Source of the DNA: Solirubrobacterales bacterium
GTDB lineage: Bacteria; Actinomycetota; Thermoleophilia; Solirubrobacterales; 70-9
Direction of reading: 5' to 3'
DNA length: 64,000 nt
Assembly (NCBI GenBank): GCA_035556755.1
Contig: DATMEP010000096.1
Span: forward strand, 1,110-65,109
In this document: piece by piece, positions 44,629 to 63,039 of the stretch
Position numbering within the stretch: position 1 is the stretch's first letter
How the letters are laid out: every line of letters starts with the position of its first letter
The notes under the pieces: generated by a model
Database searches by the model: none
Told to the model about the DNA's origin: nothing
The model's input: the letters and a program-made list of their open reading frames with translations, nothing else
Translations under genes and position numbers: made by a program

Positions 44629-44646
44629 GACTAACGATTCTATGCT

Positions 44647-45858
44647 GTGAAGATGCTGTTCGCGAGCACTTCGCCACTGCGTCGCGAGATCGAGGGGAGG
44701 ATCCCGGAGCGCCCCTTCGCGGTCGAGTTCTGGGACGGGACCCGGCTGCCCTCGACGAACGGCGACGGGCCGACGTTCTACGTCCGCTCGCCGCGCGCCG
44801 CCGCACACGTCCTGCGCGCGCCCGGCCAGCTCGGCCTCGGCCGCGCCTACGTCAGCGGCGAGATCGAGGTCGACGACATGGACGCGGTCATCGAGCTGCT
44901 CGACAGCTGGCAGCCGCCGCCCCTGGAGGGAGGCGATAAGGCGCGGCTGCTGCTTGCCGCGGTGCGCGCCGCCGGTCTGACCCGGCCGCCGCGCCGTCCC
45001 GCCGCCGAGCTGCAGCCCAGCGGGCGGCGCCACAGCAGGGAGCGCGACGCCCGCGCGGTCCGCCACCACTACGACGTCTCCAACGAGTTCTTCTCGCTCT
45101 TCCTCGACGACTCGACGACCTACAGCTGCGCGATCTTCTCCCGCGGTGCCGAGACGCTGGAGGCGGCGCAGGAAGAGAAGCTGGAGACGGTCTGCCGCAA
45201 GCTGGCGCTGAAGGAGGGCGAGCGGCTGCTCGACGTCGGCTGCGGCTGGGGCAGCTTCCCGCTCTGGGCGGCGACGCGGCACGGTGTCAGCGTGGTCGGC
45301 ATCACCCTCTCGCCGCCGCAGGCGGAGAAGGCGCGGCAGCGGGCCGAGGCGGCCGGCGTCGCCGACCGGGTCGAGATCCGCGTCATGGACTACCGCGACC
45401 TCACCGGCGAGCGCTTCGACGCGATCGCCAGCATCGGCATGGTCGAGCACGTCGGCGAGGAGCAGATCGACGTCTACGCGCGGACGCTGGCCGGCCTGCT
45501 CGAGCCCGGCGGCCGCCTGCTCAACCACGGCATCACCCGGTTGCGGCACAACGACCCCGAGGCCGGGGCGTTCTCGGAGCGCTATGTCTTCCCCGACGCC
45601 GAGCCGCTGCACCTCTCGCGGGTGCTGCTGGCGCTCGAAGGGGCCGGCTTCGTCCCCCGCCACGTCGAGGAGTTCGGCGCCGACTACGCCGAGACCCTGC
45701 GCCACTGGGCGCGGCGCCTGGACGAGAACCTCGACGAGGCGATCCGCCTGGCCGGCCCCGAACGGGTCCGAGTCTGGCGCCTCTACCTGCGCGCCGCCCG
45801 CAACGGCTTCGAAAACGGCTTCACCTCGATCTACCAGGCCCGCTGCACCCTGGCCTGA
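44647..45858 (+). CDS. Cyclopropane-fatty-acyl-phospholipid-synthase-family SAM methyltransferase
   Basis: 403 aa with HYDVSNEFF, LLDVGCGWG and C-terminal ..YLRAARNGFE.. motifs. Confidence 0.85.
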   Translation: MKMLFASTSPLRREIEGRIPERPFAVEFWDGTRLPSTNGDGPTFYVRSPRAAAHVLRAPGQLGLGRAYVSGEIEVDDMDAVIELLDSWQPPPLEGGDKARLLLAAVRAAGLTRPPRRPAAELQPSGRRHSRERDARAVRHHYDVSNEFFSLFLDDSTTYSCAIFSRGAETLEAAQEEKLETVCRKLALKEGERLLDVGCGWGSFPLWAATRHGVSVVGITLSPPQAEKARQRAEAAGVADRVEIRVMDYRDLTGERFDAIASIGMVEHVGEEQIDVYARTLAGLLEPGGRLLNHGITRLRHNDPEAGAFSERYVFPDAEPLHLSRVLLALEGAGFVPRHVEEFGADYAETLRHWARRLDENLDEAIRLAGPERVRVWRLYLRAARNGFENGFTSIYQARCTLA

Positions 45859-45886
45859 GATCGAGTTTGGTGGGAGACCGGGTGGC

Positions 45887-49713: not shown

Positions 49714-50334
49714 TTATCCTGTTTCTTCGTAGTCGAGTTCGACTGGAGTTCCGTTGCTTGTCTCCAGTGTGAATTTGCCCTCGATCGCGCCGACCGGGGG
49801 GCAGCCCGGCCCAGTCCCGGTGAGGGCGGACTGTGTGATCTCGAATTCATCGACCCCCCATCCGCGCCCTTCTAGGTGAGCGGTGCCCGCGAAATGACAT
49901 GTCTGGAGCGGCGTCGTGTGATTCACATCGCTGGGGTGGTATATGTGGTCTATCAATGTCACGCCAACGTTTCCTGTGCCCCATGTATTGATTGTCAGGT
50001 TTTGGACGACTGTCAAATCTGTGATTGTCACTCGGAAACCGTTCTCTGCAACTGTGCAGTGTTCGGTTGTTCCTTCTCCCAGTGGGTTGAGGACGACATG
50101 GCCTCCCGGGCCGTTCGTGACAACTTCGAAGTGAAGCATCACTTTTGTGCAAACAATCGTGCCTTGGCTCGTTGTTATCTTTAGATCGGTGCTTGTAGCT
50201 GTGACGCCTGCGCCAGCTGCGAGTTTCTGTGTGTCCTCTGTCAGTGTGACTTCGGCCTGAGCAGCCGCCGGCGCCGTGACGGCGATTACCGTTAGCGCTA
50301 TGCTGCCGAATAGCAGAATTCTCTTGATGCTCAT
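49714..50334 (-). CDS. Secreted 4-Cys beta-rich protein, divergent member (paralog 1) of the island family
   Basis: 206 aa from the ATG at 50334. The signal peptide is MSIKRILLFGSIALTVIAVTAPAAAQA. It shares VTITDLTV and four Cys with the other paralogs and lies in an A+T-richer patch. Confidence 0.7.
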   Translation of the reverse strand: MSIKRILLFGSIALTVIAVTAPAAAQAEVTLTEDTQKLAAGAGVTATSTDLKITTSQGTIVCTKVMLHFEVVTNGPGGHVVLNPLGEGTTEHCTVAENGFRVTITDLTVVQNLTINTWGTGNVGVTLIDHIYHPSDVNHTTPLQTCHFAGTAHLEGRGWGVDEFEITQSALTGTGPGCPPVGAIEGKFTLETSNGTPVELDYEETG

Positions 50335-50493
50335 CTCTTTCCCTTCATGGTCGTAGCTCATCCCCCATTCGGGGGATGAGCGATCCATAACGGGGAAGCT
50401 CTAGTTAGTCAATAAATATTGAGCTTAAGACACGCAAATTTGTCTACAGCGACAAGTCGGGTGGCCGCGGCTGCGCCGCACTGACGACCTCGG

Positions 50494-50847
50494 CTATCTC
50501 TCGCCCTCAGGCACCCTGAAGATCTGCTTCAGCTGCTCGTCGTGGTGACCGAGCTTTGCTCCAGTCTCTCGCTCAAGCTCTTCGAGCCGTTCTTCAATCG
50601 CAGAGTATGAAGCTGCAATGCGGCGAAGCTCGACGAATACCCGCATGATCTCTACCAGCGGACGGTTCCGACGACCCCCGTGCCCTCCACTTGAAATCAC
50701 AAATTGTGATTTCAAGTCGCTGAACTCTTGCGCGGACAGCTGGAACATGAAGCCGTCGGGAAAGCGCTTGATGTTGCGTTTTACTTGCAGAACCAGGACC
50801 CTGGTCTCGACGCCGTAAAGGACTGCGAGATCCTCATCGAGCATCAC
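50494..50847 (-). pseudogene. ORF6N-domain (phage/KilA-N-related) gene remnant
   Basis: ..VMLDEDLAVLYGVETRVL.QVKRNIKRFPDGFMFQL..LKSQFV matches the ORF6N pattern as I remember it. The frame is open upstream (..EKRILVVRERQ) with no start codon. About 25 aa appear to be missing internally after GGRRN. Confidence 0.55.
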
Positions 50848-51040
50848 TTGGCGCTCACGAACGACCAGGATCCTCTTCTCGGTTGCTGGAGTTGCGATTA
50901 GCCCTGCGAGACCTTATTTCCTGCCGAGTCGACCATCGACGCAGGGCTGCAGATGCGTCGGAAGCTATTGTCTGCAGTCGGGATCGCAATTTGCGAGAAG
51001 TGAGGATAATTCGCCAACGAAGCCCTTTTGCTGAGCGCTT

Positions 51041-52390
51041 CTACAACGACGGATCGGTGGCCGCAGCCGCGTCGATAAGGCCGGCGCCCTGCCGCGTCGC
51101 CGCCAGGCCGAGGTTGCGGGCGGTCGCGCCCAGCCGCCGGGCCACCCGGTTCACCGTGCCGCGGGGCGAGGTCTTCGGCGGCAGCACCCCGCTGGCCAGG
51201 ACCATCGCCGCGACGCCGGAGACGTGGGCGGCGGCCATCGAGGTGCCGACGTAGTTGGCGGGCTCGCCGAAGCGGCGCGTGTCCCCGCCCTTCAAGGTCA
51301 CCTGGTAGATCGGCCGCGACCAGACCGAGGGGCAGCCGGGCACGGGCGCACCGCCGCCGGGGGCAACGACGTCGATCCCGTCGCCGGTCAGCGAGTAGCC
51401 ACCGAGGCAGCCGCCCTCGGTGGCGCCGCCGACGCCGATCACGCGCGGGCCGGTGGAGGGCGGTGAGACGCAGGTCTCGGCGCCCAGGTTGCCGACCGAG
51501 GCCACGGTCACGACCCCTTTCTCGTAGGCGCGGCGCAGCTCCTCGTTGATTCCGGGGACGCGCTTGCCGCAACCGAAGTTGAAGCTCATGTTGATCACGT
51601 CGGCGCCGTTGTCGACGGCGAAGCGGATTCCCCTGGCGATGTCGTCGGCCTCGCCGGCTCCGTGCTTGTCGAGGACCCGCACCGGCATCAGCTTGGCGCG
51701 GTAGGCGAGCCCTGCCAGCCCGATGCCGTTGTCGGTCTTCTCGCCGATCGTCCCGGCGATGTGGGTGCCGTGGCCGTTTTCGTCGAGTGGTAGGGAGTCG
51801 CCGGCAACGAAGTCGTAGCCCTTGACGAACTGGCCGGTGGCGAAGTCGGGACTGCGCAGGAAGCGCGGGGACATCGAGCGGTAGGCAACGCCGGTGTCGA
51901 GGACGGCGACGACGATTCCCTGGGCGCCGGGGCGCTTTGCCTCGATCAGGTTCTGCCAGGCGCCCACCGCGTCGATCCCGCCCGGCGAGGTCGGCAGCAG
52001 TGCGGTCGGCGCGCCTTCCCAGGGCAGCAGGTTCCACTGCAGTGAGGTCCAGCCCCCGGGCGCGCCGGGCGGGCCTTCGATCGGGCCCGGGTCGTTGGGT
52101 ATCCCCGTGCTGGTCAGCAGCGGCTTCGTGGCCGAGGCGGTGGCGATGTAGTTGGGGGCGGCGTAGGAAACCCGCGGCCTACGCCGCAGCGCCGCCGTGG
52201 CCCGGTGCACGCCGACGCCGGGTGGCAGGTCTACGGAGCGCCCAACTCGCTGGCCCTCGAGCTTGACGACGACCTCGCCGGGCACGAAGGCGCGCGCCGG
52301 CGAGACACCAGTAGCCGCCGCGGCTGGGGCCGTCGCGAAGGCGCCCGCGAGCAGGGCAGAGGCAGCGAAGGTCGTCAGGCGTCGGCTCAT
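51041..52390 (-). CDS. Secreted S8-family (subtilisin-like) serine peptidase
   Basis: 449 aa with a signal peptide and a catalytic triad context of VLDTGV, HGTHIAG and GTSMAAAHVSG. G+C-rich like the core genome. Confidence 0.9.
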   Translation of the reverse strand: MSRRLTTFAASALLAGAFATAPAAAATGVSPARAFVPGEVVVKLEGQRVGRSVDLPPGVGVHRATAALRRRPRVSYAAPNYIATASATKPLLTSTGIPNDPGPIEGPPGAPGGWTSLQWNLLPWEGAPTALLPTSPGGIDAVGAWQNLIEAKRPGAQGIVVAVLDTGVAYRSMSPRFLRSPDFATGQFVKGYDFVAGDSLPLDENGHGTHIAGTIGEKTDNGIGLAGLAYRAKLMPVRVLDKHGAGEADDIARGIRFAVDNGADVINMSFNFGCGKRVPGINEELRRAYEKGVVTVASVGNLGAETCVSPPSTGPRVIGVGGATEGGCLGGYSLTGDGIDVVAPGGGAPVPGCPSVWSRPIYQVTLKGGDTRRFGEPANYVGTSMAAAHVSGVAAMVLASGVLPPKTSPRGTVNRVARRLGATARNLGLAATRQGAGLIDAAAATDPSL

Positions 52391-52464
52391 GTCGGATCGG
52401 CTCGCGTAAATCCCTGCAGTGGAGCGAGCAATCAGCTAACACCGGCCGGCCCGCGAAGTTGTAG

Positions 52465-52953
52465 GTGGCACATACTCTCCGATCGATGCCGGACGAGTCG
52501 CTCGACGCCCAGCACCGCCGCCTGATGGGCCTGGCGATCGAGCGCGCCCGCGAGGCGGAGCAGCACGGCGACGTCCCGATCGGGGCCGTGGTGGCCCGCG
52601 AGGGCCAGGTGCTCAGCGCCGCCGGCAACGAGCGGGAGCTGCGCAAGGACCCCACCGCCCACGCCGAGATCCTCGCGATCCGCGCCGCGGCCGAGGCGCT
52701 CGGAGGTTGGCGCCTGCCTGGCACGACCCTCTACGTGACGCTGGAGCCCTGTGCGATGTGCGCCGGGGCGATCGTCCTCGCTCGCATCCCCACCGTCGTC
52801 TTCGGCGCCTCCGATCCGAAGGCCGGCGCCGCCGGCAGCGTCCTCGACGTCCTCGGCGAGCCCGCGCTCAACCACCGCCCCCAGGTGGTCGGTGGCCTGA
52901 TGGAGCCCGAGTGCGCAGCCCTCCTGCGCGATTTCTTCGCCAGCCGCCGCTGA
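52465..52953 (+). CDS. tadA: tRNA adenosine(34) deaminase
   Basis: 162 aa with HAEILAI and PCAMCAGA zinc motifs. An alternative ATG is at 52486. Confidence 0.9.
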   Translation: MAHTLRSMPDESLDAQHRRLMGLAIERAREAEQHGDVPIGAVVAREGQVLSAAGNERELRKDPTAHAEILAIRAAAEALGGWRLPGTTLYVTLEPCAMCAGAIVLARIPTVVFGASDPKAGAAGSVLDVLGEPALNHRPQVVGGLMEPECAALLRDFFASRR

Positions 52954-52975
52954 ACGAATACCCTTTGGCCAACCG

Positions 52976-53065
52976 GAGAGGTGTCCGAGTGGCTTAAGGA
53001 GCGCGACTGGAAATCGCGTGGGCGGGGTTAACCCGCCTCGTGGGTTCGAATCCCACCCTCTCCGC
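52976..53065 (+). tRNA. tRNA-Ser (anticodon GGA)
   Basis: The 90-nt class II cloverleaf has acceptor ggagagg/cctctcc. The anticodon arm is cgcga-ctGGAaa-tcgcg, the long variable arm is gggcggggttaacccgcctc and the T-arm is gtggg-ttcgaat-cccac. CCA is not encoded. Confidence 0.95.
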
Positions 53066-53271
53066 TCCTAGCGCTTCACCGTTCGATGAAAGATACGGCG
53101 GTCCTCAAACTACATAAAGTATTAATAAAATTCTCTTGATTATTTCCCCTAGGATGGTGGCGGAGATGGCGTCGATTTGCAAGGGAAGGCGCTGGCATAG
53201 GACTCGATACGCACAAGGGGAATCCGGAGTTAGGCAACGGGCCGGCTCGCACGAGTCGGTCGCGGGTCCCG

Positions 53272-54285
53272 GTGCTGGCAGGCAGCCGAGCGCTTTCGAT
53301 CTTTGCCTATGCGCTGAACGCGCGAACCCTGCGGGCCCACGCCGATGGCGCGCTGCGAGCGAGTGACCTAGAAGAGACAATCGGCTGGGCGCCGCAGACG
53401 AGTCTCCGGGCTGCCGTGGCCAACCTCTGCGAGCTGGGCGTCCTCGCCAAGCGGGATCCCAGCAGCGAGTCAAGGTGCCTTACTACCGAGATCACCTCGG
53501 CCGGCCGTGACCTCCTCACGGTCGCCGATCGGCTCGAGTATTGGCTGCTGCACGCCCCGAAGGGCCCGATCCAGCTCGACGGCGCCGCCGCTGCAGGCGC
53601 GATCAGGGCGCTGATCGGCGGCTGGGACTCGACTATCGTCAGAGTGCTCGCGGAGCGGCCTCTCACGCTGACCGAGCTCAACTCCGAAATCCCGGACATA
53701 AGCTATCCGGCGCTTGAGCGTCGTCTGTCCAAGCTGCGCTCCACGAATCTCGTCACCGCAATCGAGAGCACGGGCAAGGGCAAGCCCTATGCCGTGAGCG
53801 ACTGGCTCTGCCACGCGATTGCCCCACTTGCCGTCGCGGGACGGTGGGAGCGAAGCTATATGGCCGACAATGTCGCCCCTATCTCCCATGTCGAGGTCGA
53901 GGCTTCGTTCCTGCTCACCCTTCGGTTGGTGGAACTTTCCCACAGCACTACCGGAGCCTGCGCGCTTGCCGTGCTCACGTCAGCAGGAGATGCCGGAGGG
54001 GAGGAGAGGCAGGTGGCCGGCGTCACCCTTGGGGTGCGGGAGGGAGAGATTGTCTCCTGCAGCTCCGATACCGCCTCCGACCCACCCACGTGGGCGCTGG
54101 GCACCTCGGACGCTTGGCTCGAAGCTGTGGTCGACGGCCGTCTCGATGCTCTTCGAGTTCGAGGCGCCAAACCGGACCTACCGATGAACATCGTCCAAGA
54201 CATCCACGATCTCCTCTTCCCGCCGTTAAGTACCGCAAATTTGCGCGTGTTAGACACCGACTTACAGCGATTTGCAGGCAGATAA
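53272..54285 (+). CDS. Tandem winged-helix (HxlR-like) transcriptional regulator with a C-terminal SCP2-like region
   Basis: 337 aa. The second wHTH is WDSTIVRVLAERPLTLTELNSEIPDISYPALERRLSKLRSTNLV. It is the first gene of the A+T-richer island. Confidence 0.6.
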   Translation: MLAGSRALSIFAYALNARTLRAHADGALRASDLEETIGWAPQTSLRAAVANLCELGVLAKRDPSSESRCLTTEITSAGRDLLTVADRLEYWLLHAPKGPIQLDGAAAAGAIRALIGGWDSTIVRVLAERPLTLTELNSEIPDISYPALERRLSKLRSTNLVTAIESTGKGKPYAVSDWLCHAIAPLAVAGRWERSYMADNVAPISHVEVEASFLLTLRLVELSHSTTGACALAVLTSAGDAGGEERQVAGVTLGVREGEIVSCSSDTASDPPTWALGTSDAWLEAVVDGRLDALRVRGAKPDLPMNIVQDIHDLLFPPLSTANLRVLDTDLQRFAGR

Positions 54286-54428
54286 CCCGAGATCCATGAA
54301 CCCCGCCGGTTTCTCGTGTCGCCTTCCGCAAAGTTTTTCTTGACTGTTCTCTAGTTCTTCCGTTATTGATCGCCATGTCCCCGGCCATCCGGGGATAGGG
54401 AAACCAATTCAATAGGGAAGGGAATTCG

Positions 54429-55007
54429 ATGAACCTCAAGCGCATCATGCTGGTCGCCAGCATGGCACTCGCCTTGGTCGCCGTTGCCGCTCCGGCATCC
54501 GCATCGGCGAACTGGCTGAAACACCATAAACCGATCACCCAAAACGAGCATATTGAAGTCGAGGGTGTACTGGGTTTCGCGATCCCGGGGGTTGCTTCTT
54601 ATAGGTGCGAAATAGATATTACAGCCACACTATTCGCCGGAACCACAACAGGTGAGATTGACACATTTGACATCACAACAAATAAATGCGTAGGTGAAGG
54701 TGGGTTGCAAGCCTGCACCTTGAAAGGTGACCACACCTTTGATCTCCCATGGGAGATGCATGTCGAAACAAATGAAGCCGGCGAACCTGACATAACCATT
54801 ACAGACGTCACAATCACAAATACATATAACGACAATACACCTAACTGCCCGGTACATGACAGCACTGTTATCTTCCCGGCAGTGACAGCAACGCCCGATA
54901 ATCCGACCACAATGAGTACCCTAACCGTTTCGGGAACGGGTGCCGGTGGTATCCAGGCATTCGGTACGGCTTCGGTTACACCCAAAGCTACATTCGGAAT
55001 CGAATAG
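54429..55007 (+). CDS. Secreted 4-Cys beta-rich protein, island family paralog 2
   Basis: 192 aa with signal peptide MNLKRIMLVASMALALVAVAAPASASA and motifs YRCE, TTNKCVG, LPWEMHV, ITITDVTIT and SVTPKATFGIE. Confidence 0.8.
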   Translation: MNLKRIMLVASMALALVAVAAPASASANWLKHHKPITQNEHIEVEGVLGFAIPGVASYRCEIDITATLFAGTTTGEIDTFDITTNKCVGEGGLQACTLKGDHTFDLPWEMHVETNEAGEPDITITDVTITNTYNDNTPNCPVHDSTVIFPAVTATPDNPTTMSTLTVSGTGAGGIQAFGTASVTPKATFGIE

Positions 55008-55049
55008 CCGTTTGAGTGCACCTCACAGCGCTGCTGCGGGGTGATCTAA

Positions 55050-55096
55050 GTGGGGCCGCGTAGCCCAAAACTACGCGGCCCACTTTAGAAAATTTT
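55050..55096 (+). terminator. Intrinsic terminator after paralog 2
   Basis: gtggggccgcgtag / ctacgcggcccac form a 13-bp stem with one bulge. The loop is cccaaaa and tttagaaaatttt follows. Confidence 0.65.
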
Positions 55097-55126
55097 CGAG
55101 TTCCTTAACAAGCTTACGTGTAAATG

Positions 55127-55156
55127 TTGACAAGACCTCAGTTGTACCTCTATGGT
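55127..55156 (+). promoter_or_regulatory. Candidate sigma70-type promoter for the 775/1304-aa operon
   Basis: TTGACA (55127..55132), an 18-nt spacer, then TATGGT (55151..55156), about 85 nt upstream of the GTG at 55242. Confidence 0.35.
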
Positions 55157-55241
55157 GCCGACTGGCTCGATTGTGTCGGGCTAGTCGATTTGGGCAATAG
55201 GGAGAGCCCGGCGTGGGGCCGGGCGCGAGGGGGGGGACGAA

Positions 55242-57569
55242 GTGAGACAGCTTTCGATGTCCTGGCAGGGTAGCCGGGTCAAAGCAGGCGATACATTGTG
55301 GTTCGCATGCCTGGTATCCGCCTTTTTCTCAGCTGTATTTTTGGCGGTTTTTACTTCTTCTGCTTCTGCCGCTCCGGTTCCAGGCGATCCCTGCTCAAAT
55401 GGGGATATTCGGCTAGAACAGAACGTTGCCTTTCTTCCGGACTGCATGGCTATTGAGCTTGTCAGTCCGTCACGCAAGTTCAACCAGCGTGCCAACAATC
55501 CCCACGTTTCAGCCAACGGGCAACGCATTCGCTTTCTCTCGCCTGCTGGCTTGGCCGAAACGCCGGGTTTATTAGATCCATTTGGCGACCCATACGTTGC
55601 CACTCGTGGGCCATCCGGATGGGAAACCTTACCTACCTCTCCACCAGCCGGTTTCTTCTACGGATGGCGGAAAAACGCGGAGCCTCTCAGTTTCACGCCG
55701 GATTTCTCCAGTTGGTTTCAAATTGCAGCCACTCTGTCTCAGCGACAAATGGGTATAGCTCAAGTCTTTCAAGGGAGGCTAGATGGATCATTCTCACTAT
55801 TATTTCCGGCGTTGGTTCCGTTGGGCGGTGGTGTACCCCTAACCGTCGAAGCGAGTGATCTCCAGGGTGCGTCTGAAGATCACTCCCATCTCTACTTTCG
55901 CCCGGGGCCCAAGGCCGCTGGTGGTGCTGATCGTCTGACTTCCTATCTATCGGGCGATCCGAGTCCATCCGGACCGGGCGCCGACTACAATGTCTATGCT
56001 GTGGCTTTCACGCCTTCGGACGTGCCTTTCATTGTTCTTCTTTCGCGTGATGGAGAGGGGAAAGTATGGGGTGGTAATTGTGGCGCTCGTCTTGGCGGCA
56101 TAGGGGAGTTTGTGGGAGTCGGTCCGTTCCCTGCACCTAACGGAAATAGAAATCAACACGCCATTTCTACGGACGGTACTCGCGTGTACTTCTCTGCCCG
56201 TGCGGCTCAACCCGAATCCGGGCCCTGCACTGAAGCGAATAAACTACGTATTCTCAAGCGAATTGAGGCTCAAGACGGGCCATGGATCAGTCGCTTGCTT
56301 AAAGAGCCCTCCGGGGATTGCGATCGAGTAGCACCACCTTGTAGTGCAGCCGATGGTGATGACCTTTACCAAGGGGCGTCCATGGACGGCACTAAGGTTT
56401 ATTTCACTACCAATCGTACGGTTGCTGACTCCGATCTCGATGACAGCGCCTCCCAATGCAGTCTTACGATCGCTCAGCCCGGCTGCGACTTGTATCTTTA
56501 CGACTCCACGCTGCCCCCCGGTCAGCGGCTGATCCAGGTTTCGGCCGGTGAGACTGTCCCTGGGTTGCACGAAGCTGGTAAAGAAGCAAAGGTATTCAAT
56601 TCGGTCGCGGCAATTTCCGGAGACGGTTCTCACGTCTATTTCGCTGCCGAAAATGTTCTTACCTCAGATAAGAATCCCGAAGACGGCGAAGCGCAACCAG
56701 GCCAGCCGAACCTATACGTCTGGGATTCTGCGACTAAATCCCTTGCTTTCATCGGTGCCTTGGCGTCAGGTGATCAAGGTGCTCTCTGGGGTGGGGAAGG
56801 CACCTTCAAGAACAATGCCTATCCGGTGCCTGCAGTGGATGAGAATCTCGGTCAAATCGGGGGAGATGGGCATATCCTTCTTTTTCTCTCAAAAGCTCCC
56901 CTCACGGCAGATGACGGGGACGGCCTTAGTCGTGACCTATTCCGTTACGACGCAGAGTCTGAGCAGTTGGAGCGGATTTCGAAGGCGGTACCGGGAGGAA
57001 ACGACAACGGCGCGTTCGACGTGGCCTCGCGTGGCAATCCTTTTGTCCCTGGTACCGACTTTGCTGAGGACGGTCGATGGGCGAGTGAGGATGGTGAGAC
57101 CGTCGTTTTTTCAACTAACGAGACTCTCGTCCCAGACGGTATTGGTGGCGACGGTAACTCTTACCTCTGGCGGAGGGGGCAGTTGGTCCGCCTGCCGGGT
57201 GGCACTCCTGTTCTCTCCCATGACGGTTCTACGGCTGCCTTTACGACTCCAGCCCAGCTTCTGCCCGAGGATGGGGATTCAATCGGCGATGTTTACGCAG
57301 CTAGAGTGGAAGGGGGTTTTCGAAAACCGCCCCCTATACCGGTCTGCATACCCAACGGGAACGAGGGGTGTCAAGGTTCCTCTGATGCTGTCCCCAGCGT
57401 TCCCAGCGCTCAGGGGCTCGGGCTTTTAAGTCAGGGCAATGTAAAGCTGGACCCGGTGCGTAACTGCCCTCGCGGCAAGCGGAGGGTTCAGCGCAAAGGG
57501 AAAACTCGCTGCGTTAAGCGGCCAAATCACGAGAAACGAACCAGCCGCAAGCAGGGGGGCCAGCGATGA
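55242..57569 (+). CDS. Secreted seven-repeat (PD40/TolB-like propeller suspected) protein with a Cys + poly-basic C-terminal tail
   Basis: 775 aa with a signal peptide (..FLAVFTSSASA). There are seven spaced (S/G)xDG..(V/I/L).F units: SANGQRIRF, STDGTRVYF, SMDGTKVYF, SGDGSHVYF, GGDGHILLF, SEDGETVVF, SHDGSTAAF. The tail reads NCPRGKRRVQRKGKTRCVKRPNHEKRTSRKQGGQR. Confidence 0.75.
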   Translation: MRQLSMSWQGSRVKAGDTLWFACLVSAFFSAVFLAVFTSSASAAPVPGDPCSNGDIRLEQNVAFLPDCMAIELVSPSRKFNQRANNPHVSANGQRIRFLSPAGLAETPGLLDPFGDPYVATRGPSGWETLPTSPPAGFFYGWRKNAEPLSFTPDFSSWFQIAATLSQRQMGIAQVFQGRLDGSFSLLFPALVPLGGGVPLTVEASDLQGASEDHSHLYFRPGPKAAGGADRLTSYLSGDPSPSGPGADYNVYAVAFTPSDVPFIVLLSRDGEGKVWGGNCGARLGGIGEFVGVGPFPAPNGNRNQHAISTDGTRVYFSARAAQPESGPCTEANKLRILKRIEAQDGPWISRLLKEPSGDCDRVAPPCSAADGDDLYQGASMDGTKVYFTTNRTVADSDLDDSASQCSLTIAQPGCDLYLYDSTLPPGQRLIQVSAGETVPGLHEAGKEAKVFNSVAAISGDGSHVYFAAENVLTSDKNPEDGEAQPGQPNLYVWDSATKSLAFIGALASGDQGALWGGEGTFKNNAYPVPAVDENLGQIGGDGHILLFLSKAPLTADDGDGLSRDLFRYDAESEQLERISKAVPGGNDNGAFDVASRGNPFVPGTDFAEDGRWASEDGETVVFSTNETLVPDGIGGDGNSYLWRRGQLVRLPGGTPVLSHDGSTAAFTTPAQLLPEDGDSIGDVYAARVEGGFRKPPPIPVCIPNGNEGCQGSSDAVPSVPSAQGLGLLSQGNVKLDPVRNCPRGKRRVQRKGKTRCVKRPNHEKRTSRKQGGQR

Positions 57570-60500
57570 TTGAGATCTGCTACCGCAGCACTACCTTCTA
57601 CTACTACAACACTCAAGGCGTGATCCATGTTTTCTGGCTCGCTGGCTTCTTAACGGGACTTATCGCCGGCATCATTGGACTGAGCGTTAACCCGATGAAC
57701 GCCGTAGCGGTGCCCACCCTGGGTGCCTATATAGAAAAAGATGAGCTATCGGTTAGTAGAAGCGACGAAAGAATCAATTATACGGTGACCGTTGCTAATG
57801 TTGCCAGAGTTGTATCTGGGGCGGAACTCACCTGTAATCCCACTGCATGGGGAGGCTCTAGTCCGACGTTTAGTTTTCAATGGTTACGCAACGGGGTTGC
57901 TATTCCAGGAGCAGAAGCTTCCACCTATGGGCTACAGGCGGCAGACAACGGGCAAGTTATTCAATGTAGGGTAACTGCAACGAACACGGTTGTGGATATA
58001 GGCGGTGGTTTTGCCGGCTCTACCCGTGTAGCAAGTGGCTTTATCGTTGATCCCGTACCTTCCGCGGCACCTCCAATGACGGCCGGGACCCCCACCCTAA
58101 CGCTTAGTGTTGGCGGTTCACTAAATGTGGGAGGTGACCCGTCGGCTACGGCTCCACCAACGACTCTGACCTGTGCCACTGGACTCTGGCGCGGCGAACC
58201 GACGTTTAACTATCAGTGGTACCGCAATGGAATTCCGCTTTCTGGTAATGGTGCCGCTACGAACACCTACGCCGTCCAAGCCGCTGATGTTGCTACCAGT
58301 GCCACTTTTCAGTGCGCTGTGAAGGCAGCTAATGCCAGCGGCGCGGCGACGAAAGTATCTGCGAACCTTGCCACTAACCCGGCGCCCTCTCCTGTGGCTC
58401 CTAGCAATAACAACACGTTGTCCGTCTCAAGCATGAGCGAAACCAGCACCCCAATCAGCGGTGTTGTCAATGTGGAGGTTCATCTACCGGAGAGTGAAAG
58501 TACGTTCGCGTACAAAATCTTCAATGGAACGAATGAAGAAATTGCGCCTAGTGGCTGGACCTGTTCCTCCCAGCCCCCATCTGGTGGCCTTCAGGCAAAA
58601 GTTTCCTGCAATCGCGCCAATGCGTTAAATCCCGGTGCTCTCTATCCTCCAATCGCTATCGGCACCGCACTTGGAGACGATTTACCCAATGTCGCGATTG
58701 CTAGCGCTACAGTCTCTGGTGGCGGTGCGCCCCTAGCTGCGAGTGCGTTTAATGAATTTACTTTCACCCCACCGAGACTATTCGACATCACTGCGTTTGA
58801 AACCAAAGTTCCTAATGAAGGAGGGGTGGTTGAAGAGACTCAAGCTGGTGGCCACCCACTTGCCGCCAGGGCTACCTTTTCGTTCGCCAAAAAAAGGGTG
58901 TTGATCCCCCCTTCGGTACTTCCTGGTGATAGATATGCCCCGATGGGCCGGGCCAGGCTTATTGCCACCGACACTCCGCGTGGATTCGTTGGCAACGCTT
59001 TAGCTGTGCCTGAGCTATGTTCCTCGATGGAGGTGGTGCTGGCACAGACTTGTCCATCCGGCAGTGTGGTCGGCGGAGTGACCATTGACGGATTCGGTAC
59101 CAAGATCGAAAATATGCCAATTTACGCGATCGAGCCTGAATTTGGCGTTCCCGCTCAGTTTGCCTTTCCCCACAAACTGTCAGAGACGGTCTACACCTTT
59201 ACCCCACGCCTCCGGCCTGAGGATGGTTATGCAATAACGCTCGAATCTGCACCAGCGCTTGTTAATCCAGCTCTCCGCGATGTACAAGCCACGATTTGCG
59301 GATTTGGAGCGACCACGGGTGGGCCATTCAATGAATTCGTCAGCTGCAAGAAAGCGACGCAGATAGGAGCTAATCCCGTCCCCTTGGTCACGCTGCCGAC
59401 TCGATGCGCAGCAGAGCCACCTACCACGGTCCTTCGCGTGGACGCTTGGGAGAATCCTGGCGAGTTTGCAGTCAAAGAGTTTGAGGCGCCGGCTGTAACT
59501 GGTTGTGATGCGGTCGAATTCGAACCTGAGATCGAGTTAACTCCGACTTCCGTCCAGGCGGACTCCCCGACGGGATTGGATGTCTCGCTGACCATGCCCA
59601 CCGACGGTTTGGAGAGCCCTACTGGTATTTCCCAGGCAAATTTGAAGCGGGCCACCGTGACTCTGCCGGCCGGAATGGCGGTTAATGCGGCCGCTGGCCA
59701 TGGGCTCGCTGCCTGCACGGCCACCCAGGTCAAGATGAAGACCAATAACCCGATCGAGTGTCCGGATGGTTCGAAGATCGGGACGATCGCGATCGTCACG
59801 CCGCTGATTCAGGAAAAACTGACCGGATCGGTGTATATCGCGAAGCAAAATGACAATCCGTTCGACGAGATGATCGGCCTCTATATGGTCTTTGAGTCTG
59901 AGAAAGACGGGATCCTGATCAAGATTGCGGGCAAAGTGATCCCGGACCCGAAGACCGGTCAACTTGTCATCACCTTCGATGACAACCCGGAAGCGCCGTT
60001 TTCTAGCGTCGACCTTCATTTTGCCCAGGGACCACGTTCGCCCTTGCTCAATCCCCGTCGCTGCGGTGCCTATGAGATCAAAGCGGAGCTGACGCCCTGG
60101 AACGCTGCGGATCCCAATAACCCGACCGCAGAGGAGACGGTCGTCCAGACCTCTACCTTTGAGGTGACGGAGGGCCCGAATGGCGGTTCTTGTCCCGGTG
60201 GTGGCCTCGACCCGAAGCTGACCACCGGTTCGTCTAACCCGGTCGCTGGGGGCCATGGTTCGTTCCTAATGACCCTCAAGCGCGATGACGGTACCCAGCG
60301 CTTCACCGCTCTCGCCGTGACCGTTCCTACGGGTCTCACCGCAGACCTCAGAGGTATTCCGTACTGCCCAGACGCAGTGCTGGCGTCGATCCCCACGGCT
60401 GAGGAAACCGGCCAGGCTGAGATCGACAATCCATCCTGCCCGGCGGCCAGTCAGATCGGCACTTCCTCGGCAGGCGCCGGAGCTGGCCCCGATCCGTTCT

Positions 60501-61480
60501 ACGTCAATACCGGCAAGGCCTACCTCGCCGGTCCCTACAAAGGTGCGCCGCTGAGTCTGGCGCTGGTTGTCCCGGCGGTGGCTGGGCCGCTCGACCTCGG
60601 CAACGTGGTCGTGCGCACCGCCCTGTACATCAACCCGAAAACGGCCCAGATCACGGCCGTCTCGGACCCGATCCCGACCATCCTCCATGGCATCTTGCTC
60701 GACGTCAGGGACATTCGGGTGGCGATCGACCGGCCTAACTTCATCGTCAATCCAACTAATTGCGAACCGCTCTCGGCTGGCGCGACGGTGAAGGGAGATG
60801 AGGGCGCCACCGCCAATGTCTCCAGCCCGTTCCAAGTTGGAAATTGTGCCGGCCTTGGGTTTAAGCCAAAGGTTTCGCTGAGGCTTAAAGGCGGTACCAG
60901 GCGAGGCGACAATCCGGCTCTTACGGCTGTCCTGACGCCGCGGGCGGGTGACGCGAACGTTGCCAGGGCGGCTGTGACGCTGCCTCGGTCCGCCTTCCTG
61001 GACCAGGCGCACATAAGGACGGTCTGCACCCGGGTCCAGTTCGCGGCGGACCAGTGCCCGAAAGCGGCCATTTATGGCCGGGCCGTGGCGGAGACCCCGC
61101 TGCTCGACCAACCGCTCGCGGGCCCCGTCTACCTGCGCTCGTCCAGCAACCAACTGCCGGACCTGGTCGCCGACCTGAGGGGTCCTGCCCACCAGCCGAT
61201 CCAGGTCGAGGCGGCGTTCCGCACCGATTCGATCAGAGGTGGGATCAGGAGCACCCTCGACCTCGCCCCGGATGCCCCGGTGACCAAGTTCACGCTGAAG
61301 ATGCAGGGCGGCAAAAAGGGCCTGGTCGTCAACAGCCAGAACCTCTGCGCCAACGTCAACCGGGCCAACGTGCGGCTCAACGCACAGAATGGCCGCCGGT
61401 TCAACTCACGGCCAAAGGTCGTGGCGACGAACTGCGGCAAAGGGCGCTCGGGGAAACGCAAAGGCAAAAGGGCGCGCTAG
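57566..61480 (+). CDS. Giant N-terminally anchored protein with two Ig-like repeats, a ~1000-aa uncharacterised region and a Cys + poly-basic tail
   Basis: 1304 aa. The ATG overlaps the upstream stop (ATGA). There is an N-terminal TM (VFWLAGFLTGLIAGIIGLSV). Two C...W..(S/E)PTF.(F/Y)QW.RNG...G....TY..QAAD.....QC.V.A.N repeats follow. The tail reads NCGKGRSGKRKGKRAR. Confidence 0.8.
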   Translation: MIEICYRSTTFYYYNTQGVIHVFWLAGFLTGLIAGIIGLSVNPMNAVAVPTLGAYIEKDELSVSRSDERINYTVTVANVARVVSGAELTCNPTAWGGSSPTFSFQWLRNGVAIPGAEASTYGLQAADNGQVIQCRVTATNTVVDIGGGFAGSTRVASGFIVDPVPSAAPPMTAGTPTLTLSVGGSLNVGGDPSATAPPTTLTCATGLWRGEPTFNYQWYRNGIPLSGNGAATNTYAVQAADVATSATFQCAVKAANASGAATKVSANLATNPAPSPVAPSNNNTLSVSSMSETSTPISGVVNVEVHLPESESTFAYKIFNGTNEEIAPSGWTCSSQPPSGGLQAKVSCNRANALNPGALYPPIAIGTALGDDLPNVAIASATVSGGGAPLAASAFNEFTFTPPRLFDITAFETKVPNEGGVVEETQAGGHPLAARATFSFAKKRVLIPPSVLPGDRYAPMGRARLIATDTPRGFVGNALAVPELCSSMEVVLAQTCPSGSVVGGVTIDGFGTKIENMPIYAIEPEFGVPAQFAFPHKLSETVYTFTPRLRPEDGYAITLESAPALVNPALRDVQATICGFGATTGGPFNEFVSCKKATQIGANPVPLVTLPTRCAAEPPTTVLRVDAWENPGEFAVKEFEAPAVTGCDAVEFEPEIELTPTSVQADSPTGLDVSLTMPTDGLESPTGISQANLKRATVTLPAGMAVNAAAGHGLAACTATQVKMKTNNPIECPDGSKIGTIAIVTPLIQEKLTGSVYIAKQNDNPFDEMIGLYMVFESEKDGILIKIAGKVIPDPKTGQLVITFDDNPEAPFSSVDLHFAQGPRSPLLNPRRCGAYEIKAELTPWNAADPNNPTAEETVVQTSTFEVTEGPNGGSCPGGGLDPKLTTGSSNPVAGGHGSFLMTLKRDDGTQRFTALAVTVPTGLTADLRGIPYCPDAVLASIPTAEETGQAEIDNPSCPAASQIGTSSAGAGAGPDPFYVNTGKAYLAGPYKGAPLSLALVVPAVAGPLDLGNVVVRTALYINPKTAQITAVSDPIPTILHGILLDVRDIRVAIDRPNFIVNPTNCEPLSAGATVKGDEGATANVSSPFQVGNCAGLGFKPKVSLRLKGGTRRGDNPALTAVLTPRAGDANVARAAVTLPRSAFLDQAHIRTVCTRVQFAADQCPKAAIYGRAVAETPLLDQPLAGPVYLRSSSNQLPDLVADLRGPAHQPIQVEAAFRTDSIRGGIRSTLDLAPDAPVTKFTLKMQGGKKGLVVNSQNLCANVNRANVRLNAQNGRRFNSRPKVVATNCGKGRSGKRKGKRAR

Positions 61481-61539
61481 CGCCCGCAAAACTCGCGCGG
61501 CACGACCGCACAGCGGTAGCCCTGGCGCCGCGTTGAGAA

Positions 61540-61577
61540 GGCTCCGGCCGGACTTCCTTGCCCGTCCGGCCGGAGCC
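61540..61577 (+). terminator. Hairpin terminator after the 1304-aa gene
   Basis: ggctccggccgga / tccggccggagcc form a 13-bp perfect stem followed by gtgcttt (a weak T tract). Confidence 0.5.
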
Positions 61578-61710
61578 GTGCTTTAGAAGCCCGTCCGGCG
61601 GTGCATCTGCGCAGATTTGCATGGGTAAATTTGAGCATTTGACCCCGATCCTCTATGCATCGGAGTGCCCTCGCTGGGGGCATCCGACACAAGAAGGAAA
61701 GGGAGAGAAG

Positions 61711-62280
61711 ATGGGCATCAAGAGGATCATTCTGGTCGCAAGCATGGCGTTTGCTGCGATCGCAGTCGCGGGCCCGGCGTCCGCCTCGGCGCTCGAATGG
61801 ACAAAGCACAGCGCGCCGCTCGAAGCCAACGAGAAAATCGGGCTCACAGGCACCCTGGAACTGGTGATCCCGACGGGAGCGATGGACTGCGAGGTCCATG
61901 CAGAAGCCAAACTCACAGCGAATACCTCGACAGGTGAGGTGGAAAAAATCGAAATTACAACAAATACCTGTAAAGGCACAGGCAGCCTTACGAATTGTCA
62001 AGTCGTGAACGACACGGTGGCGGCTCTGCCGTGGACCATGCATATCACGGCTGCTCTGGAAATCACCATCACAGACATGACAATTACTCTCAACAACAAA
62101 GCGGGGACCGGCTGTCCCATTCCGGCGACCGTATTTCACATCCCGACCGTGACCGCGAAACCGGATTTCACCGAAGTTATAAGTAGCTTGGAATTGTCCG
62201 GGGCGGGTACAGGCGGCACCGGCATCACCATGAACGGATCACTGTCCGTGACTCCCAAAGCCACATACGGGGTCTTCTAG
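61711..62280 (+). CDS. Secreted 4-Cys beta-rich protein, island family paralog 3
   Basis: 189 aa from the ATG at 61711 with signal peptide MGIKRIILVASMAFAAIAVAGPASASA and motifs DCE, TTNTCKG, LPWTMHI, ITITDMTIT and SVTPKATYGVF. Confidence 0.8.
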   Translation: MGIKRIILVASMAFAAIAVAGPASASALEWTKHSAPLEANEKIGLTGTLELVIPTGAMDCEVHAEAKLTANTSTGEVEKIEITTNTCKGTGSLTNCQVVNDTVAALPWTMHITAALEITITDMTITLNNKAGTGCPIPATVFHIPTVTAKPDFTEVISSLELSGAGTGGTGITMNGSLSVTPKATYGVF

Positions 62281-62292
62281 TTCTCTGACGTC

Positions 62293-62330
62293 AAAAAGGC
62301 GCCGCCCTCGAATGGGGTGGCGCCTATTTT
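62293..62330. terminator. Bidirectional intrinsic terminator between convergent paralogs 3 and 4
   Basis: aaaaa-aggcgccgccc-tcgaat-ggggtggcgcct-atttt gives a ~11-bp stem with an A-run upstream and a T-run downstream. Confidence 0.65.
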
Positions 62331-62351
62331 GCTGTCGGCGTGGACCGTCGG

Positions 62352-62921
62352 TCAGTTCACGCCGTATGTGCCACTCGGCGTGATTTCCTGTGTGCCTGAT
62401 GCGATGGCGCCGTTTTCAGCAACGCCGGAGATGGATACGTCGCTAATTTCTTCCGGGTTGTCTGGCTGGTTTTCGACTTTTTTGAACGAGAGTTTGATTT
62501 CCTCGATTTCACATTCGCCGGGTTTGACTTCGAATGTGTAGTCGATTGTTGTATCTGTGATGACAAATCCGCCGCCCATTACGTGGGCAGGCCAGGGCAG
62601 ATTTGTGATTTTCTCTTCTTTCAGTTTGCATTTGGCCAGGAGGCCGCCGCCTTTGCATTTGTCTGTTGTGAATTCGTATTTGGTGACCGTGGTGACGCCG
62701 GCGTCGCTGATTGTGTAAATCAGGTGCGCTTCGCATTCATATGAGGCGATGCCTGGGATCTGGAAGCTGGCGGGCCCTGTGGCTTTGATCTCGACGTGTC
62801 CTTCGAGAGGATTGCCTTCGTGGGTCCATTCATCGGTTGCGGAGGCCGATGCCGGGATGGCCAGTGCGCTAAATGCCAGCAGGGCAAGCACGAACCGTTG
62901 AGCATTCTTGATGCCAATCAT
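62352..62921 (-). CDS. Secreted 4-Cys beta-rich protein, island family paralog 4
   Basis: 189 aa with a signal peptide ..FVLALLAFSALAIPASASA and motifs YECE, TTDKCKG, LPWPAHV, VITDTTID and ITPSGTYGVN. Confidence 0.8.
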   Translation of the reverse strand: MIGIKNAQRFVLALLAFSALAIPASASATDEWTHEGNPLEGHVEIKATGPASFQIPGIASYECEAHLIYTISDAGVTTVTKYEFTTDKCKGGGLLAKCKLKEEKITNLPWPAHVMGGGFVITDTTIDYTFEVKPGECEIEEIKLSFKKVENQPDNPEEISDVSISGVAENGAIASGTQEITPSGTYGVN

Positions 62922-63039
62922 GATGTTCCTTTCTCGTTTGTTCGAGTCTCCGTTTGGCGGAGACCATTAGACGAGAAAAGTTTAGTTTTCAGTTGTCAAC
63001 CCACACAACTAAGAAAGCGCATATTTGCGCGGGTTCAGC

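Follow-up and report, generated by a model that had tools for sequence, protein, structure and literature searches.

Tandem modules that anchor proteins to the cell wall, such as SLH and CWB2 domains in groups of three, are carried by secreted enzymes and S-layer proteins. A closer precedent for the organization described here is provided by the WxL (Csc) gene clusters of Firmicutes, in which a WxL domain makes up the whole of the small proteins and the C-terminus of the large ones, and which also encode immunoglobulin (Ig)-like partners containing DUF916 and DUF3324 (PMC1534035, PMC9772566, PMC10599100). The present analysis deals with an analogous arrangement in a stretch of 64,000 nucleotides from a Solirubrobacterales bacterium (contig DATMEP010000096.1 of assembly GCA_035556755.1), referred to here as the window, and, in particular, with four small genes in it, p1 to p4, whose products are predicted to be secreted. 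Three of them (p2, p3, and p4) fall into one domain family, named here family A, and p1 falls into a second one, family B. Both families recur in a gene cassette together with a regulator, a propeller protein, and a large protein built of Ig-like domains, and the small proteins may serve as docking or anchoring subunits of a cell-surface complex.

The WxL/Csc clusters of Lactobacillales and Enterococcus follow the closest known logic, although this is an analogy and not homology or membership. In both cases, multi-copy clusters in Gram-positive bacteria encode small secreted proteins with a single beta-rich mature domain and large proteins rich in Ig-like domains, the same domain is found at the C-terminus of large multidomain surface proteins, and two Trp-containing strands, including the N-terminal one, are conserved. 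In contrast, the system described here has predicted disulfides, a propeller protein, a different Ig-like partner, and no LPXTG component, and it belongs to a Thermoleophilia lineage. Moreover, hmmscan of p1–p4 and the cassette proteins gave no match to Pfam WxL (PF13731), DUF916, or DUF3324 at E ≤ 1, and p1–p4 contain no W.L motif, the conserved Trp residues occurring as W(L/T)(K/H) and PW.(M/A). WxL membership was rejected, since neither a Pfam match, nor the W-x-L motif, nor a DUF916/DUF3324 or LPXTG partner was found. As for SLH and CWB2 modules, the domain of family A (the A domain) also occurs in twos and threes C-terminal on secreted proteases and other enzymes, suggesting a pseudo-oligomeric anchoring unit. 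Nevertheless, it shows no homology to these modules (Pfam negative), is much larger (~165 amino acids, aa) and all-beta with predicted disulfides, and is also abundant as free-standing single-domain proteins.

The four open reading frames (ORFs) reported in an initial annotation of this DNA are present exactly at the coordinates and on the strands that it gave: p1 at 49714..50334 (−), encoding 206 aa from an MSIKRI start; p2 at 54429..55007 (+), encoding 192 aa and directly following the regulator gene, apparently as a transcription unit of its own; p3 at 61711..62280 (+), encoding 189 aa; and p4 at 62352..62921 (−), also encoding 189 aa and convergent with p3. Every motif listed in that annotation was recovered in p2, p3, and p4. 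Their signal peptides end in ASA and are followed, after the cleavage site, by W(L/T)(K/H); Cys1 lies within YRCE, MDCE, or YECE; Cys2 and Cys3 lie within TT(N/D)(K/T)C.G.G.L..C; and LPW..H(V/I), ITITD.TI, Cys4, and a C-terminal TP..T(Y/F)G(I/V) are all present. The mature parts are pairwise 33–42% identical (BLASTP E = 2e-31, 7e-31, and 2e-23), a similarity far beyond chance, so that, judged by sequence, p2, p3, and p4 are true paralogs. Against the hidden Markov model (HMM) of family A, p2, p3, and p4 score E = 2e-69, 6e-65, and 2e-61, and their mature domains alone match the family profile at E = 6e-54, 8e-52, and 2e-52. The p2 protein is VNP96_07905 in the annotation of a Solirubrobacterales metagenome-assembled genome (MAG), and a protein identical to p3 is found in three other assemblies.

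The proposal of a single four-member family had to be replaced by a grouping of three family A members and one separate family B member. Mature p1 has no significant BLASTP match to p2–p4 (best E = 0.019), does not match the family A HMM built from 104 mature sequences (E = 30), and, when the mature profiles of the p1 and p2 families were compared with hhalign, gave P = 0.011 and a probability of 3.8%. Assignment of p1 to family A was rejected, since BLASTP, the mature-domain HMM, and hhalign (in both global and local mode) all fail to connect the two after removal of the signal peptide. The significant resemblance is confined to the signal peptide (hhalign columns 1–45), where it is visible even in the DNA, with 71% identity over 76 nucleotides between 50261–50336 and 61709–61784. 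Thus, of the description of p1 as a divergent paralog that keeps VTITDLTV and four Cys residues, the four cysteines are confirmed and TITD recurs in its own family, but homology to family A is unproven. Likewise, the idea of a diversifying family could not be demonstrated, since the synonymous divergence (dS) between paralogs is saturated (1.5–2.1) and, therefore, the overall ratio of nonsynonymous to synonymous divergence (dN/dS) of ~0.3–0.4 is uninformative on diversifying selection, and no support was obtained for a function as decoys.

Family A is, as judged by profile searches, a large unnamed domain family rather than a local set of paralogs. An exhaustive search of 1.84 billion representatives retrieved 875 proteins at E ≤ 1e-3, 580 at E ≤ 1e-10, and 84 at E ≤ 1e-30, corresponding to at least 875 clusters at 50% identity, and wherever a member bears a source name, the source is a MAG of Solirubrobacterales or Thermoleophilia. 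Architectures were counted on the 155 best representatives, of which 102 consist of a signal peptide and one domain, 40 contain two tandem domains, 7 contain three, and the remaining 6 are large secreted proteins with two to four copies. In five of these six large proteins, the copies are located at the extreme C-terminus, downstream of Peptidase_S8 (with or without Inhibitor_I9), trypsin, NHL propeller, or FN3 domains. C-terminal pairs of A domains are carried by at least four S8 peptidases (P0063, P0064, P0085, and P0140), and in P0072 two A domains are joined to an NHL propeller, a fusion that may be read as a Rosetta-stone link between propeller and A domain.

The best-conserved positions of family A are Gly, Cys, Pro, and Trp residues, including W29 in the N-terminal strand, together with the C-terminal T-Y-G, and the alignment contains no conserved polar constellation suggesting catalysis. 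Since, in addition, no known family or fold was matched, family A is probably not an enzyme, and a non-enzymatic, extracellular A domain is among the strongest inferences that architecture and synteny allow. The claim of four conserved cysteines holds for p2–p4 and for 87 of the 104 single-domain members but not for the rest, where Cys1 and Cys4 are jointly missing in 16 and one retains Cys1 alone. The joint presence or loss of Cys1 and Cys4 across the 104 members (Fisher p = 6e-18) and the Cys2-x8-Cys3 loop present in p2, p3, and p4 fit a putative Cys1–Cys4 disulfide and a putative disulfide closing the Cys2–Cys3 loop.

All four small proteins have classical Sec signal peptides, with a K/R-rich n-region, a hydrophobic core of ~15 residues, and an A-S-A or A-Q-A end, and lack lipobox Cys, LPXTG, and WxL motifs. 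Together with the co-varying Cys pairs, these properties agree with the extracellular location initially proposed and make secretion the probable fate of these proteins. The mature proteins are acidic (pI 4.4–4.8), with a Thr content of ~18% in p1–p3 and 10.6% in p4, and a low aromatic content (3.7–7.5%). No match to Pfam or NCBIfam was found for p1–p4 at E ≤ 0.04, no PADLOC model matched, PHROGs returned only weak matches confined to the signal peptide, and a PDB sequence search with the p2 family profile was negative. The absence of a named family, already noted in the initial annotation, was, therefore, borne out by Pfam, NCBIfam, PADLOC, PHROGs, PDB sequences, and Foldseek alike.

An AlphaFold2 (AF2) model of p2, based on an alignment of nine sequences (predicted local distance difference test score, pLDDT, 85; predicted template modelling score, pTM, 0.76), shows ~11 antiparallel strands that follow one another in an all-beta meander, with lengths of 13–18 residues for several of them. 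In Foldseek searches of PDB and BFVD with this model, the top matches were weak and concerned half-barrels of the LolA type and small up-and-down barrels. TM-scores were highest for the OmpA transmembrane domain in PDB (TMq 0.43, TMt 0.55) and for a phage ‘outer membrane protein beta-barrel’ in BFVD (0.47/0.50), both at non-significant E values of 0.16–0.19. The OmpA transmembrane domain, the C-terminal lobes of NHBA and TbpB, and LolA-like proteins, which are the best though weak neighbours, share with the model a meander of long antiparallel strands. However, they match only at Foldseek E ≥ 0.0098 and TMq ≤ 0.47 without any sequence similarity, and the small proteins described here differ from them in their secretion in a presumably monoderm lineage, their predicted disulfides, and their low aromatic content. 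The fold is, according to this model, probably new.

Along the window, tRNA-Ser(GGA) is followed by an HxlR-like regulator, p2, a 775-aa PD40-type protein, a 1304-aa Ig-domain protein, p3, and p4. The parts of this cassette recur elsewhere, namely a regulator, which is HxlR-like or PucR-like, one or more small proteins, and a PD40/NHL propeller protein together with an Ig-like-domain protein of 1,000–1,400 aa. The synteny rests on 13 independent loci and does not represent a census. In nine independent loci, all from metagenomes other than this one, homologs of the 775-aa and 1304-aa proteins adjoin genes of family A or B, and the link of the small proteins to both large ones, suggested earlier from the window alone, is, thus, strong as judged by synteny. 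The identity of the homologs encoded around A genes to the window proteins ranges from 43 to 46% for the regulator, from 25 to 53% for the 775-aa protein, and from 36 to 56% for the 1304-aa protein.

The gene order regulator, A, 775-like, and 1304-like is found in L001, and an A gene adjoins divergent 775-like and 1304-like genes in L002. Contigs end after regulator and A in L003 and L015, and after A and 775-like in L004. A second layout, present in L017, L008, L016, and L018, contains a PucR-like regulator (RsbRD_N / GGDEF_2 / HTH_30). In this layout, L017 has the order 775-like, 1304-like, NHL, regulator, and an S8 peptidase with two A domains; L008 has 1304-like, NHL, regulator, and a three-A-domain protein; and L016 has the regulator followed by an NHL propeller with two A domains. 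On the 2.6-Mb contig of L018, the regulator is followed by a two-A-domain protein, a membrane-anchored collagen-repeat protein, and the 775-like and 1304-like proteins. The collagen-repeat protein (6858–7709 of L018; 283 aa), encoded between the two-A-domain and 775-like genes, has an N-terminal membrane anchor and collagen G-x-y repeats, and hints at a fibrous surface structure.

Family B occupies exactly the slot of family A in two further cassettes, in which an HxlR-like regulator precedes two B genes, a 1447-aa NHL protein, and a 1310-aa 1304-like protein (L009/L010), or one B gene, a 1379-aa NHL/PD40 protein, and a 1197-aa 1304-like protein (L011/L012). Moreover, L013, with three tandem A genes, and the B cassette of L009 share the same wider context, since both follow a chlorite-dismutase-like gene and a GT4 / LPG_synthase_TM glycosyltransferase gene. 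A fused GT4 / LPG_synthase_TM protein of ~755 aa is encoded upstream of A or B genes in L009 (6391–8667), L013 (3892–6156), and L015 (6450–8729), and in L009 and L015 the HxlR-like regulator gene lies between it and the small genes. This neighbourhood suggests a link to the synthesis of envelope glycolipids or polymers.

Family B itself has ten members at E ≤ 0.01 in a word-indexed search. Its cysteines C62, C93, C146, and C178 are invariant and all present in p1, which matches the family B HMM at E = 1e-68. A TITDGT-like strand is present as well, and the signal peptide of family B is nearly the same as in family A. No family A protein matches the family B HMM, and the HMMs of the mature families A and B showed no cross-match in any locus examined. 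Families A and B are interchangeable parts of one cassette type, their homology being unproven, and this interchangeability justifies, as an instinct, the initial grouping of p1 with p2–p4. In the public annotation, p1 (VNP96_07875) has 224 aa and starts at an upstream ATG (region 50335–50388) inside the predicted −10 region and the hairpin of the 5′ untranslated region (UTR). The 206-aa start used here, at ATG 50334, is backed by the N-termini of homologs and by the Shine-Dalgarno sequence GAAGGGAAAGAG.

The two large proteins of the window are encoded by overlapping genes. The first (55242..57569, +) encodes a secreted PD40-type propeller-like protein of 775 aa, in which PD40 is matched at the Pfam threshold and six S.DG..V.F repeats are found, with homologs in L001, L002, L004, L009, L011, L017, and L018. 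Its start is uncertain, as the protein has 707 aa in the annotation of another assembly (L005). The second gene (57566..61480, +) is translationally coupled to the first by an ATGA start/stop overlap and encodes a secreted ‘stalk’ protein of 1304 aa with multiple Ig-like domains (Pfam Ig_2, E = 9e-10). Its C-terminal 905 aa have at least 703 homologs; the 119 matches listed are 53–66% identical, all annotated as ‘hypothetical’, and several 1304-like proteins occur per genome, including VNP96_07915, VNP96_03080, and VNP96_03685 in this MAG. Scans of both large proteins and the regulator against Pfam, NCBIfam, PADLOC, and PHROGs returned only the Ig, PD40, and HxlR matches, and PDB sequence searches with the 775-aa and 1304-aa proteins gave no match.

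The AF2 model of the C-terminal region of the 1304-aa protein (47 sequences; pLDDT 88, pTM 0.79) is a chain of beta-sandwiches. Its Foldseek matches, at E ~2e-7, are integrin alpha legs, the C-terminus of Streptococcus mutans antigen I/II (probability 1.0), and the MG domains of complement and alpha-2-macroglobulin. As in antigen I/II and the ‘leg’ domains of integrin alpha, a chain of Ig-like sandwiches would form an elongated extracellular stalk, and the modelled protein looks like a stalk or adhesin of this kind. In contrast to these proteins, it has a cysteine-rich polybasic tail and no LPXTG; the global TM-score is 0.1–0.23, a low value as expected for flexible multidomain chains, and the identity is 7–10%. 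At the C-terminus of each large protein, a conserved Cys precedes a Lys/Arg-rich tail of 15–30 residues without a hydrophobic anchor or LPXTG, and the tail is kept in the alignment consensus of 1304-aa homologs. Since no LPXTG-like sorting motif was found in p1–p4 or in the 775-aa and 1304-aa proteins, this sorting route finds no signal among them. The polybasic tail may be a wall-retention or sorting signal, by which the large proteins could be held electrostatically on the anionic wall.

The first gene of the cassette (53272..54285, +) encodes the 337-aa HxlR-like winged-helix regulator (Pfam HxlR, E = 2e-8), whose orthologs (43–46% identity) are located immediately upstream of A or B genes in L001, L003, L009, L010, L011, L012, and L015. 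In the window, the palindrome GCAAATWTGCG, with at most one mismatch, occurs in only four places in 64 kb, all of them upstream of the four small genes, giving six strand matches against 0.82 expected, a number that none of 100 shuffles reached. These sites are the candidate operator ACAAATTTGCG at 50433..50443, ~100 nucleotides upstream of p1; the perfect palindrome CGCAAATTTGCG at 54234..54245, ~190 nucleotides upstream of p2 and within the 3′ end of the regulator ORF; the candidate operator GCAAATCTGCG at 61610..61620, ~95 nucleotides upstream of p3; and the palindrome GCGCAAATATGCGC at 63018..63029, ~100 nucleotides upstream of p4 and at the right edge of the low-GC island described below. 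The p1 and p2 sites pair as inverted repeat I23. The exact palindrome is found elsewhere only in assemblies of the same organism; looser CGCA-N4-TGCG palindromes, recorded without statistical evaluation, precede small genes in L002, L004, and L011.

The four small genes share a common upstream layout, composed of the palindrome, a TTGAC-type −35 element ~25 nucleotides downstream, a GC hairpin in the 5′ UTR, and a GGAAAGG-type Shine-Dalgarno sequence. A probable terminator, formed by a GC-rich hairpin and a T-rich run (55045..55089, +; inverted repeat I20 with 19-nucleotide arms), follows p2, and a probable bidirectional terminator with a 12-bp stem (62297..62325) lies between the convergent p3 and p4. 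This layout and these terminators suggest that each small gene is its own, probably well-expressed transcription unit in a common regulon, with the HxlR-like protein as the candidate regulator acting on the shared palindrome. The operon of the two large genes is preceded by a promoter-like TTGACA-N18-TATGGT (55127..55156, +), which is a match to the consensus only, at 10 of 12 positions.

The initial observation that the small genes lie in A+T-richer DNA was corroborated, since they have 51–56% GC, with a GC content at third codon positions (GC3) of 0.52–0.67, compared with 70–74% GC in flanking genes. GC3 is 0.50–0.69 in the cassette genes and 0.75 in the regulator gene, and every flanking gene has 0.91–0.96. 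Similarly, cassettes of other genomes are 5–15 GC points below their own flanks. The left border of the cassette island (~53.07–63.03 kb) is formed by the tRNA-Ser(GGA) gene (52975..53065, +; ARAGORN). A classical integrated island was rejected, as no att-like direct repeat of the 3′ end of tRNA-Ser was found at the far border and no integrase is present. When p2 and the C-terminal region of the 1304-aa protein were compared with PLSDB by tblastn, no match pointing to plasmid carriage was obtained. The low GC content could possibly reflect horizontal circulation of cassettes within the class or a selected compositional bias. The p1 gene lies in a low-GC islet of its own (49714–50900), together with an ORF6N / anti-repressor-like fragment, a 117-aa ORF (50494–50847, −) whose match to phage anti-repressor / ORF6N-type proteins (phrog_4792, E = 1.5e-10) is restricted to the N-terminal part of the latter. 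Taken together, p1, this fragment, and the cassette genes span GC3 values of 0.50–0.75. The fragment, next to p1, is probably the remnant of a mobile element and is the only such trace. An S8 peptidase gene (51041–52390) is located between p1 and p2, and further upstream, as read from sequence alone, host-composition lipid and envelope genes extend from 43705 to 48271, with a fatty-acid desaturase-like ORF, a cyclopropane-fatty-acyl-phospholipid-synthase-like ORF (44647–45858), and a 794-aa polytopic membrane protein (45887–48271).

On the basis of architecture and synteny, the favoured reading, with a probability of about 45%, is that a cell-surface complex peculiar to this lineage contains the small proteins as docking or anchoring subunits, because the A domain appears to be extracellular, to act in twos or threes, to be tied to propeller and Ig-stalk proteins, and to be located C-terminal to enzymes. 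Action in twos and threes is indicated by two- and three-domain fusions, by one to three paralogs per locus, and by the pairs on large proteins, and the tie to propeller and stalk proteins by the nine loci, the two regulator types, and the propeller–A–A fusion P0072. In surface proteins of Gram-positive bacteria, it is typically anchoring or docking modules that take such a position C-terminal to enzymes. In this proposal, p2–p4 (family A) and p1 (family B) would be free-standing small subunits of a Thermoleophilia/Solirubrobacterales-specific surface-protein cassette, exported by Sec and cleaved after A-x-A. They would fold into a ~165-aa acidic, Thr-rich, barrel-like beta-meander locked by Cys1–Cys4 and Cys2–Cys3 disulfides, and this module, devoid of enzymatic activity, would serve for docking or anchoring in groups of two or three. 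In the course of evolution, two or three copies of it have repeatedly been fused into one chain, and secreted S8 proteases and NHL propellers have acquired a pair of copies at their C-terminus. The free small proteins would assemble together and then associate with the 775-aa propeller and 1304-aa stalk proteins, and the polybasic C-terminal tails of these two would retain them on the anionic cell wall. The four small genes, as separate units, would share a palindromic operator probably bound by the HxlR-like regulator.

Several observations weigh against this proposal. With the p2 model, Foldseek found no structural neighbour at E < 1e-3 in PDB and BFVD, so that no function can be transferred, and the small proteins carry no recognisable wall-binding motif, WxL, LPXTG, SLH, and LysM being absent. 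The A genes of L013 have no large proteins nearby and, therefore, the domain can act independently of them. The p1 gene of the window stands as an orphan outside a cassette, next to a truncated anti-repressor-like ORF, and the link between regulator and operator is purely positional. Secretion, disulfide pairing, oligomerisation, binding to the large proteins or the wall, and the identity of the regulator are all points that we infer.

Other explanations of the same data differ in how they account for the fold, the partners, and the C-terminal pairs. In its most far-reaching form, the docking proposal would describe a new surface display system or appendage of Thermoleophilia, in which an A/B barrel of new fold, locked by disulfides, acts as the universal docking subunit, hetero-dimers or hetero-trimers sit on a stalk and propeller scaffold, and C-terminal pairs plug in enzymes, a cohesin–dockerin-like logic invented independently; this full form is rather unlikely. 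It is unlikely, too, that the proteins are ligand-binding barrels of the lipocalin, LolA, YceI, or avidin-like type that capture a small ligand, hydrophobic or otherwise, such as a lipid, polyisoprenoid, siderophore, or cofactor, with paralogs differing in specificity. The up-and-down meander with long strands in the p2 model, the weak top Foldseek matches to the LolA superfamily, AttH, DynF, the NHBA C-terminal barrel, and TbpB, and the hydrophobic face of each strand, read from sequence, would suit such a function. However, all structural matches have E ≥ 0.0098, with TM ≤ 0.32 for these classes, those to LolA-like proteins have E 0.01–0.016 and TMq 0.18–0.22 without a Pfam or NCBIfam match, ligand carriers seldom occur as tandem fusions of two or three domains or as C-terminal pairs on proteases, and the synteny with Ig-like and propeller proteins would be left unexplained. 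Alternatively, the proteins could be polymerising, pilin-like fibre subunits joined by strand complementation or disulfides, with the Ig-like and propeller proteins as tip or base. The conserved N-terminal (W29) and C-terminal T-Y-G strands, the collagen-like protein in one cassette, the adhesin-like Ig chain as partner, and the several paralogous small genes per locus, each equipped with its own promoter-like element and, in the 5′ UTR, with a hairpin and a strong Shine-Dalgarno sequence, point in this direction. Nevertheless, the cassette encodes no chaperone, usher, sortase, or pilin-type motif, AF2 yields a self-complete monomer (pLDDT 85), and the putative co-varying intramolecular pairs account for all four Cys residues; fibres are a slightly poorer candidate than ligand barrels.

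The A-domain pairs at the C-terminus of at least four S8 peptidases, together with the S8 peptidase gene between p1 and p2, could also indicate accessories of subtilases, i.e., secreted inhibitors, pro-domain-like chaperones, or substrates. This is improbable, as the same pairs are found on the protease-free NHL propeller P0072, the S8 gene of the window has host-type codon usage (GC3 0.91) and lies outside the island, and the cassettes encode no protease. Least probable of all would be membrane-embedded OmpA-like beta-barrels whose C-terminal pairs serve as autotransporter-like anchors on proteases. The highest TM-scores in both structure libraries were indeed obtained with outer-membrane barrels (TMt 0.50–0.55), and the domain does follow passenger-like enzymes. 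However, these matches are not significant (Foldseek E 0.16–0.19), the proteins are acidic, Thr-rich, and low in aromatics, with two predicted disulfides, and the C-terminal aromatic beta-signal is missing in p2 and p4, which end in E and N, only p3 ending in F. The tandem soluble arrays argue against such barrels as well, and so does the description of cultured Solirubrobacterales as Gram-positive. A separate question is whether families A and B form one superfamily, so that the resemblance of p1 would reflect true, very distant homology and not merely a lineage-typical signal peptide. The chances appear evenly balanced. The shared cassette slot, the common upstream palindrome and promoter layout, the similar size, acidity, and Thr content, the four cysteines in each, and the roughly collinear first Cys and (I/V)TITD-like strand are set against a sequence signal that is not significant after removal of the signal peptide and a spacing of Cys residues and motifs that differs by ~20 residues.

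Few Actinomycetota are commoner in soil than Solirubrobacterales and other Thermoleophilia and, to our knowledge, almost nothing is known about the cell surface of the latter; a search of the literature on surface proteins of Solirubrobacterales and Thermoleophilia returned nothing relevant. What is new here is an undescribed domain family, comprising at least 875 clusters at 50% identity, that has no counterpart in Pfam, NCBIfam, or PDB and no fold neighbour, as well as a second, positionally equivalent family and a multi-copy, codon-atypical cassette that ties both to Ig-like and propeller proteins. Should the docking proposal prove wrong, the family would remain clearly delimited and, as such, suitable for a new Pfam entry and as a target of structural genomics. 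If the proposal is true, it would open a way to understand how the envelope of these bacteria is decorated and how they tether exo-enzymes, and it would provide a compact new protein–protein docking domain.

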